A DNA stretch of 32,000 nt, from contig DXJG01000001.1 of NCBI GenBank assembly GCA_019056805.1, positions 30,001-62,000 on the forward strand, written 5' to 3'. This document shows, piece by piece, positions 12,883 to 14,315 of the stretch. The stretch's first letter is position 1, and each line of letters begins with the position of its first letter. The DNA comes from Candidatus Baldrarchaeota archaeon. Its GTDB lineage: Archaea; Asgardarchaeota; Baldrarchaeia; Baldrarchaeales; DXJG01. The notes below the pieces were generated by a model. That model was not told the DNA's origin and did not search any database. It worked only from the letters and a program-made list of their open reading frames with translations. The position numbers were made by a program, and so were the translations under genes.

Positions 12883-14315
12883 TTATTTTTTAAGACTACA
12901 GTATTCTCGAATATTAATGTACTCGTAGGCATCGGTTAGACTATCGAAACAGTAGTGAACTTTTTGGAAGGCTTTTCTAAATTCGACAACATCTTTAGCA
13001 ACATCTTTGGGATTCTCTTCATTAAATACGATTCTTTTAATAAATTCTGCTATTTCCTCCATGTCGGATTCTTTCATTCCTAATCTAGTAACTTCACTAA
13101 CTCCTAGACGAATACCTCCAGGTCGTTTATAATCTCTTCCAACTCTTTTGTCCCATGGAAGCAAATTCCGATTAATTATAATGTTGGCTTCCTCTAATTT
13201 TTTCTCAACTGTCATACCGTCCTTCAGCGGTGTTTCACTAATGTCTACGAGAATCGTATGTGATTCCGTAAATCCTTTATGTTCAGCGAGAACCTTAAAC
13301 CCTCTTTCGTACAAGGCTTGGCCTAAGGCTTTAGCGTTTTTAATGATTTGACCGGCATACTCGCTACCAAAAGCAAGCATCTCTGCAAAGGCTACAGCTT
13401 TTGGTAGCAGCAGAATTATCTGCTGCTATTCCCAGCAACTAGGTGCAAATGATGATTGCTCATGGTAGACGGGAAAGCTGCTTTTTTGAGTTCCTCAGCA
13501 TATTTGCTATGCGAGAGGACCGTTCCTCCTTGTGGTCCTGGCAATGTTTTGTGTGTACTTATCGTGAAAACGTCCGCCCCTTCTCTTAAGGGGTCTTGGA
13601 ATTTTCCACCGGCAATAAGTCCTGCAACGTGTGCTCCATCGAAGTGTATATATGCACCGATTTCATCTGCAATTTCTCTAATTTCTTTTACTGGTTCTGG
13701 AAATAGAAATACGCTGGCTCCCATTATGAATAATTTTATATGTTTTCCTTCCTTTGCGAGTTTTTTAACTCGTTTTGCTGTTCCATCTACATCGATGTTC
13801 ATTTCTTTCTCGTCAAAGGCAAAATAGTGTACTTTTAAGCCCCTGACTTTCCCCGCCGTGCCCCAGAGTTTTTTCTTTGCATAGCTTATGTGGCCGCCCG
13901 AGGGAATTGAAATACTCATTATATGATCTCCAGGTTCGGTAAAAGCTGAATATACTATTAAATTTGCAATCACTCCGCTTATGGCGCGGACATCAGCAAA
14001 TTCTGCTTTAAATAATTTTTTAGCTAACTCAATAGCTATTTCTTCTACTTGATCTATATAGATACATCCAGCATAAACGCGTTCGCCGGGCCAACCTTAC
14101 CGGTCCCAGTTTAACTGGGACTTTCGGCGTATCTGTTTCCGAAATCGCTGCATAAACATTCTCGAACTGCTGGACTTGGAATGTTTTTCCGACCCAGCCT
14201 TCTATGCTGGGTTTTCGGAAGCTATTAGTGGAATTGTGCTTCGGAACCACTGATGATGTTCTTTTAATAGTTCAAATATTTTATCGTAGTATTTCTTTGC
14301 TTCTTGTTCTTCCAT
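12883..14315 (-). CDS. glyA: Serine hydroxymethyltransferase; 4 exons (14315-14214, 14185-14123, 14096-13429, 13399-12883), 449 aa after splicing
   Basis: LIASEN, RYAEGWPG, GGHIS, DGAHVAGL, STHKTLPGPQGG, SNHHLH, GIRLG. 1433 nt minus 83 nt of introns = 1350 nt. SD GGAGGG upstream of ATG 14315. Confidence 0.93.
13400..13428 (-). other. Relaxed BHB intron 3 of glyA (29 nt)
   Basis: 9-bp stem AGCAGCAGA/TCTGCTGCT, helix TGGG/ACCA with one G.A mismatch; excision gives GGG AA|A GCT (AGKA). Confidence 0.8.
14097..14122 (-). other. BHB intron 2 of glyA (26 nt)
   Basis: Helix GCCG/CGGU, bulges AAA/AAG, 7-bp stem GTCCCAG/CTGGGAC; excision gives GCC GAA|GGT TGG (YAEGW). Confidence 0.9.
14186..14213 (-). 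other. BHB intron 1 of glyA (28 nt)
   Basis: Helix TCCG/CGGA, bulges AAA/AAA, 7-bp stem ACCCAGC/GCTGGGT; excision gives TCC GAA|AAC ATT (SENI). Confidence 0.9.

Follow-up and report, generated by a model that had tools for sequence, protein, structure and literature searches.

Minus-strand positions 13428-13400 of the 32,000-nt stretch of Candidatus Baldrarchaeota DNA analysed here (the window) probably constitute a 29-nt archaeal bulge-helix-bulge (BHB) intron in the serine hydroxymethyltransferase (SHMT) gene glyA that would be cut by a broad-specificity splicing endonuclease, EndA, an alternative 31-nt fold at the same site being incidental. Splicing and the choice of register at this site, called intron 3 in the following, we infer from what the genome contains, that is the motif, the reading frame it restores, a pattern of conservation and selection, and the genes for the enzymes.

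Three hairpin inserts in glyA

The glyA gene runs on the minus strand from 14315 to 12883 and is interrupted by three short hairpin inserts. Removal of 28, 26 and 29 nt together in silico yields an uninterrupted SHMT of 449 residues (...HHLHLVAGKAVAFAEM...) that is colinear with intron-less homologues. The nearest named homologues belong to Asgard lineages. All three inserts match the BHB fold, and the predicted cuts recover the frame. The elements of the gene referred to below are, in the direction of transcription:

14186-14213, minus strand: intron 1, 28 nt, with a near-isoenergetic 26-nt register of its own
14097-14122, minus strand: intron 2, 26 nt (27 nt in the congener G001), a BHB fold with a frame-restoring cut
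13429-14096, minus strand: exon 3, whose last bases before the 5' splice site are ...GGG AA; Pfam SHMT 8e-27, profile positions 98-285; 93% identical in congeners
13435-13436, minus strand: 5' strand GC of the outer helix h of intron 3, partner 13397-13398; on either strand this GC belongs to an Ala codon
13431-13434, minus strand: 5' strand UGGG of the central helix H of intron 3, exonic; U13434 and G13431 are four-fold degenerate and both conserved
13399-13429, minus strand: intron 3 in its alternative 31-nt register, a non-productive slip isomer that shifts the frame
13400-13428, minus strand: intron 3 in its productive 29-nt register; predicted excision gives the frame and the consensus Lys; congeners share 25 of 29 positions
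13406-13427, minus strand: inner hairpin h' of intron 3, a 9-bp stem (13427-13419 with 13414-13406) and a UAAU loop; congeners differ at the apex on both sides
13402-13405, minus strand: strand ACCA (H') of the central helix of intron 3, intronic; A13405 is in the G.A pair (productive) or in a U:A pair (alternative)
12883-13399, minus strand: exon 4, stop codon included; Pfam SHMT profile positions 300-399; dN/dS 0.017-0.025 against congeners

How would the frame be restored at intron 3? In the folded pre-mRNA the exonic UGGG would pair with the intronic ACCA, giving a central helix U13434 G G G13431 / A13405 C C A13402 with the pairs U:A, G:C, G:C and G.A. This helix is flanked by a 5' bulge of A13430 A13429 U13428 and a 3' bulge of A13401 A13400 A13399, and on the minus strand the outer pairs are G13436:C13397 and C13435:G13398. 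An (alpha-beta)2 endonuclease would cut each 3-nt bulge behind its second base (AA|U and AA|A), which would remove the 29 nt from 13428 to 13400 and thereby restore the frame, and RtcB would ligate the exons to GGG-AAA-GCU, encoding Gly-Lys-Ala. With three canonical central pairs and an outer helix of 2 bp the productive motif belongs to the relaxed and not to the strict BHB class. The features by which an archaeal BHB intron is recognised in fold and host, namely bulges, helices, cut rule, endonuclease and RtcB, are all found. That something other than EndA and RtcB excises the insert from the RNA is scarcely credible, since 29 nt is far below the size of group I or group II introns, Rfam, like ARAGORN, returned no match in the window, and the insert agrees with BHB geometry and the cut rule down to the single nucleotide. 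A mobile repeat in the form of a MITE-like hairpin was also considered and rejected, because blastn-short with the intron 3 sequence returned its own locus alone in the genome, as expected of a single-copy sequence.

Four independent lines, all of them comparisons of sequences, point to the 29-nt register as the one likely to be used. 1) The spliced product is colinear with intron-less homologues and carries Lys at the junction, the residue found there in 73 of 107 such homologues (the others have Leu in 26, Val in 5, Ile in 2 and Asn in 1 case; Arg does not occur). 2) Two congeneric genomes (G001 and G003) share intron 3, as does one metagenome contig (L035, a close relative from the metagenome scan with an intron matching that of G003). 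The 3' bulge of the congeners reads AGA, removing the ambiguity that the A-run causes in the window, and there Lys results only if cutting follows the prediction (AA|U, AG|A), a 29-nt excision placed 1-2 bases upstream giving Arg. 3) Against congeners about 72% of the synonymous sites in exon 4 are changed at the low dN/dS listed above, and this purifying selection implies that translation continues in the frame that is given only by an excision of 2 modulo 3. 4) Despite saturated synonymous sites, 25 of the 29 intron bases are identical in the congeners, and the four changes fall on the apical pair, which is replaced on both sides (A:U here, C:G in G001, G003 and L035), on one base in the loop and on the 3' bulge at its middle base. 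Moreover, U13434 and G13431 are unchanged in the congeners, whereas nearly every other synonymous site nearby has changed. Since only two independent lineages carry intron 3, conservation cannot tell the registers apart.

Could the insert instead be retained in the RNA, either because glyA is a decaying pseudogene or because the ribosome frameshifts or bypasses it? The genome does contain a second, intron-less gene of the SHMT family, but we regard retention as very improbable. An exon 4 dN/dS of about 0.02 rejects a pseudogene, three inserts fit the BHB fold with predicted cuts that restore the frame, and the exons stay colinear across a 1-nt length difference of intron 2 in G001. In addition, read-through would add about 10 residues that are present in 0 of 107 homologues. 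A programmed frameshift or bypass at intron 3 was rejected specifically, as TAG at 13428-13426 closes the downstream frame and TAA at 13418-13416 the upstream frame, and no slippery heptamer of the type X XXY YYZ occurs in 13425-13419, the sole interval between the two. The insert itself occurs in DNA contigs of two origins, one being an independent sample within the source study and the other a second study, and in the DNA contigs of four runs no contig joined across it in the manner of an intron-less allele. A search of the protein collection for a spliced or intron-less near-identical protein of at least 301 residues gave a best match of 76% identity, from other lineages.

The length of intron 2 varies within the genus, with 27 nt in G001 (L007:1340-1375) and 26 nt in the genome of the window (G000; window 14097-14122), in G003 and in L035. 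The difference is a 1-nt indel at the hairpin apex; the exon frames shift accordingly and the spliced exons remain colinear, a change that would be tolerable only with removal of the insert at the RNA level.

The second gene of the SHMT family is divergent and encodes 388 residues (G000 contig 9, 421945-423111; L129:646-1812), scoring 126 bits with Pfam SHMT and 300 bits with NCBIfam PRK00011, which is under the 335-bit cut-off. Given this intron-less paralogue, a partial loss of the glyA product might be tolerated.

Splicing enzymes and comparable sites in the genome

Two EndA genes, each with both Pfam domains, are present in the genome, at 197.9 kb and 13.8 kb of G000 contig 9. EndA alpha (184 aa) has its nearest match in the catalytic alpha subunit of Aeropyrum pernix (3P1Z_B, 1e-44) and retains the Tyr/His/Lys triad. 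Its K39 occupies the alignment position of Lys44 in the Crenarchaea-specific loop of Aeropyrum EndA, a residue that confers broad substrate specificity (Hirata 2011, PMC3241643). In EndA beta (178 aa) the catalytic His is replaced by Val. Judged by these genes, the host EndA is of the (alpha-beta)2, broad-specificity type with two subunits, an architecture that a preprint infers for 44 of 60 Asgard genomes. RtcB is intact (608 bits).

The tRNA genes of the same genome offer a view of what this endonuclease would have to accept. The genes for tRNA-Met(CAU) (G000 contig 1, 6778-6882) and tRNA-Arg(CCU) (G000 contig 17, 160258-160357) carry introns at the canonical position, with central helices paired at 3 of 4 positions (the mismatches being C.A and C.U) and outer helices of 5 bp, and splicing them in silico gives standard tRNAs. 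If these two tRNAs are functional, EndA must tolerate a mismatch in the central helix. They are the two clean cases among ARAGORN intron calls that are noisy for multi-intron tRNAs, 22 of 31 tRNA genes being called as intron-containing and many of the boundaries being doubtful.

Is the motif at intron 3 a chance match? The 66-nt region folds better than 200 of 200 shuffled sequences (z = -3.1), and only some 22 sites in the 1.92-Mb genome show a comparable geometry, defined as a 9-bp or longer inner stem that includes 5 or more G:C pairs, a central helix with at least 3 of 4 pairs and one or more outer pairs. The rarity of the geometry together with the shuffling result argues that the productive motif did not arise by chance. 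Six of the approximately 22 sites are inserts in conserved genes (porG, glyA intron 3, pyrG, an EF-Tu-type GTPase, PCMT and fbp), five of them frame-breaking and one, that in fbp, in frame. This census is a sample, as strict scans overlook introns with short stems and introns with short flanking exons. Candidates that found no confirmation by Pfam were set aside: L118, L119, L122, L123, a hairpin upstream of radA (L121), a GH114 gene (L120) and cysS (L127).

In pyrG (32 nt; G000 contig 9, L115) and PCMT (31 nt; G000 contig 17, L117) a strict BHB hairpin splits the gene and the Pfam profile coordinates run on across the break. The hairpin in the EF-Tu-type GTPase (33 nt; G000 contig 10, L116) is likewise a strict BHB, and here the profile has a gap, covering 4-27 and then 67-185. 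The insert in fbp (G000 contig 17, 208549-208590; L130:750-790) is a 30-nt BHB with the helix GGGC/GCCU and bulges AAA and AAA. It contains no stop codon, and unspliced fbp mRNA would encode a 10-residue insertion at GK|DDP.

Register slippage at intron 3 and at other introns

In the alternative register of intron 3, U13428:A13405 forms a tenth stem pair, and the central helix becomes CUGG/CCAA with a C.A mismatch of its own and a single outer pair. Excision of 31 nt (13429-13399) would shift the frame, which closes 13 codons later. This slip is possible because the innermost central pair of the productive fold is G.A, leaving A13405 free for U13428. Both folds had been given in the initial annotation, and all the elements it listed for the 29-nt fold (UGGG/ACCA with the G.A mismatch, 9-bp stem, GC/GC outer pairs) are in the sequence. 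The 10-bp stem and CUGG/CCAA helix of the frameshifting 31-nt fold are confirmed as well, though the C.A mismatch had gone unmentioned. A third slip register of 27 nt, with the helix GGGA/UACC, has 3 of 4 central pairs.

For the U13428:A13405 pair the free-RNA ensemble gives a probability of 0.93 at 37 C and of 0.76 at 80 C, and a core that lacks outer closure is 2.1 kcal/mol more stable in the alternative than in the productive form. As the alternative core is favoured in free RNA, the productive bulge must come from the enzyme or from the outer pairs. Forcing each register into a full BHB reverses the order, with -17.1 kcal/mol for the 29-nt, -15.0 kcal/mol for the 31-nt and -14.6 kcal/mol for the 27-nt form; the resulting margin of 2.1 kcal/mol for the productive register, the same in both congeners, is to be read as a nearest-neighbour energy that leaves G.A pairing and protein out of account. 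The outer helix of the free-RNA minimum-energy structure (UAGUU/AGCUG) was rejected, since the congeners do not retain it. At this base composition, and given a mismatch at the inner central position, the base set free has a chance of about 0.39 of pairing with the third base of the bulge. A second register taken alone is thus unremarkable and not improbable.

Slippage is also found outside intron 3. In all seven introns tested by forcing each register into a BHB, the productive register gave the best full BHB, with the following margins over the best slip:

porG (35 against 33 nt): 0.2 kcal/mol
glyA intron 1: 0.8 kcal/mol
glyA intron 3: 2.1 kcal/mol, mid-range
pyrG: 2.6 kcal/mol
PCMT: 2.6 kcal/mol
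glyA intron 2: 3.4 kcal/mol
EF-Tu-type GTPase: 4.4 kcal/mol

Register competition is closer at glyA intron 1 than at intron 3. The 28-nt productive form of intron 1 (UCCG/CGGA, -12.2 kcal/mol) is opposed by a 26-nt frameshifting form (CCGA/UCGG, -11.4 kcal/mol), both have 4 of 4 Watson-Crick central pairs, and their shares of the free-RNA ensemble are about 0.42 to 0.56. Slips are possible at most A-rich BHB introns of this genome and are a generic consequence of A-rich bulges beside A:U closing pairs. Intron 3 stands apart in its G.A pair, being the sole case among eight likely mRNA introns examined in which the central helix is not 4/4.

Do the two registers of intron 3 compete in the cell, such that the intron is spliced slowly or partly wrongly and thereby sets or regulates the yield of SHMT? 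A point in favour of such a competition is that the free-RNA ensemble prefers the 31-nt register's tenth stem pair (p = 0.76-0.93). The three canonical central pairs, fewer than in the seven other likely mRNA introns, speak for it as well, as does the fact that the slip-enabling bases are unchanged in the congeners. Yet with both bulges closed the energies favour the productive fold, and the smaller margins at glyA intron 1 and porG mark the feature as generic. A 3/4 alternative is often expected by chance, and conservation in two lineages only is also explained by the productive fold and by coding. Furthermore, no sensor element or condition-dependent feature was found. We consider regulation by competing registers unlikely. 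One could further picture intron 3 as a natural test of EndA fidelity, in which the enzyme melts the favoured U:A pair and accepts G.A to measure 4 bp. The share lost to the 31-nt product would then depend on temperature or enzyme level, and SHMT and one-carbon flux would be held back by how accurately splicing proceeds; this is a long shot.

In our reading the slip of this 29-nt intron most likely serves no regulation and is an incidental burden, with some truncated product from mis-splicing as the worst outcome. From the two folds the initial annotation had drawn a twofold interpretation, of which one part holds and the other does not. The need for a relaxed-specificity endonuclease agrees with a motif that is relaxed and a genome encoding the EndA type that cuts such motifs; the EndA subunit architecture, proposed there as a check, comes out as alpha plus beta genes, that is (alpha-beta)2, with the Lys of the specific loop kept. 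A rate-limiting or regulatory role, on the other hand, is supported by nothing in these data, the margin at intron 3 being mid-range and two other introns of the genome having closer registers.

Relation to known archaeal introns

According to a 2020 paper (PMC7714728), no BHB intron other than that of the cbf5 pre-mRNA had been reported within coding sequence of archaea; the paper adds a site in a 5'-UTR of Haloferax. A full-text literature search for BHB introns in Asgard protein genes found no paper on them and one paper on Asgard introns, which deals with tRNAs only. Intron 3 is of a kind already known from cbf5 and is a further case of it, in an Asgard protein gene. Like the cbf5 intron of Crenarchaeota (Watanabe 2002; Yoshinari 2006; Yokobori 2009, PMC2738675), it is short, lies in the coding sequence, restores the frame upon excision and belongs to a lineage with a hetero-oligomeric EndA. 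Unlike the cbf5 intron it is located in glyA, in the Asgard phylum, as one of three in its gene and with a G.A mismatch in the central helix, and its splicing is predicted only.

With the relaxed tRNA introns cut by (alpha-beta)2 EndA (Hirata 2011, PMC3241643) intron 3 shares the imperfect BHB, the weak outer helix and the loop lysine of the host enzyme (K39), but its substrate is an mRNA, without a tRNA body to help positioning. Similarly, it resembles the Haloferax site in that an mRNA is, here by prediction, the substrate of the tRNA splicing endonuclease; the Haloferax site lies in an untranslated leader in a host with a homodimeric EndA, whereas intron 3 lies within coding sequence. Comparable in form are the introns of the same genome (glyA introns 1 and 2 and those in porG, pyrG, the EF-Tu-type GTPase, PCMT and fbp), which are GC-rich hairpins of 26-35 nt with A-rich bulges and possible slips, and whose excision restores the frame or, in fbp, drops a 10-codon in-frame insert. 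Their central helices are fully paired (4 of 4), and intron 3 alone has a non-canonical pair.

Asgard archaea are the closest prokaryotic relatives of eukaryotes, and an Asgard housekeeping gene that would need three such splices, one of them via an imperfect motif, adds to the case for this route being routine in them. What intron 3 itself contributes is narrow and modest, namely register slippage as a general property of A-rich BHB introns. Together with glyA intron 1 and porG it provides short natural substrates for studying the choice of cut sites by a broad-specificity EndA.

A break in the glyA gene of another genome (G052) was considered as an intron and rejected, as it is a run of N. 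In another Asgard family, glyA carries a BHB-shaped insert at a different site, after WPGE, with the helix CUGG/CCAG and bulges AGA and AAA (L009:1340-1385, L016:1345-1390 and, on the minus strand, L018:2150-2200). Judged by these positions, glyA seems to have gained BHB-type introns more than once.
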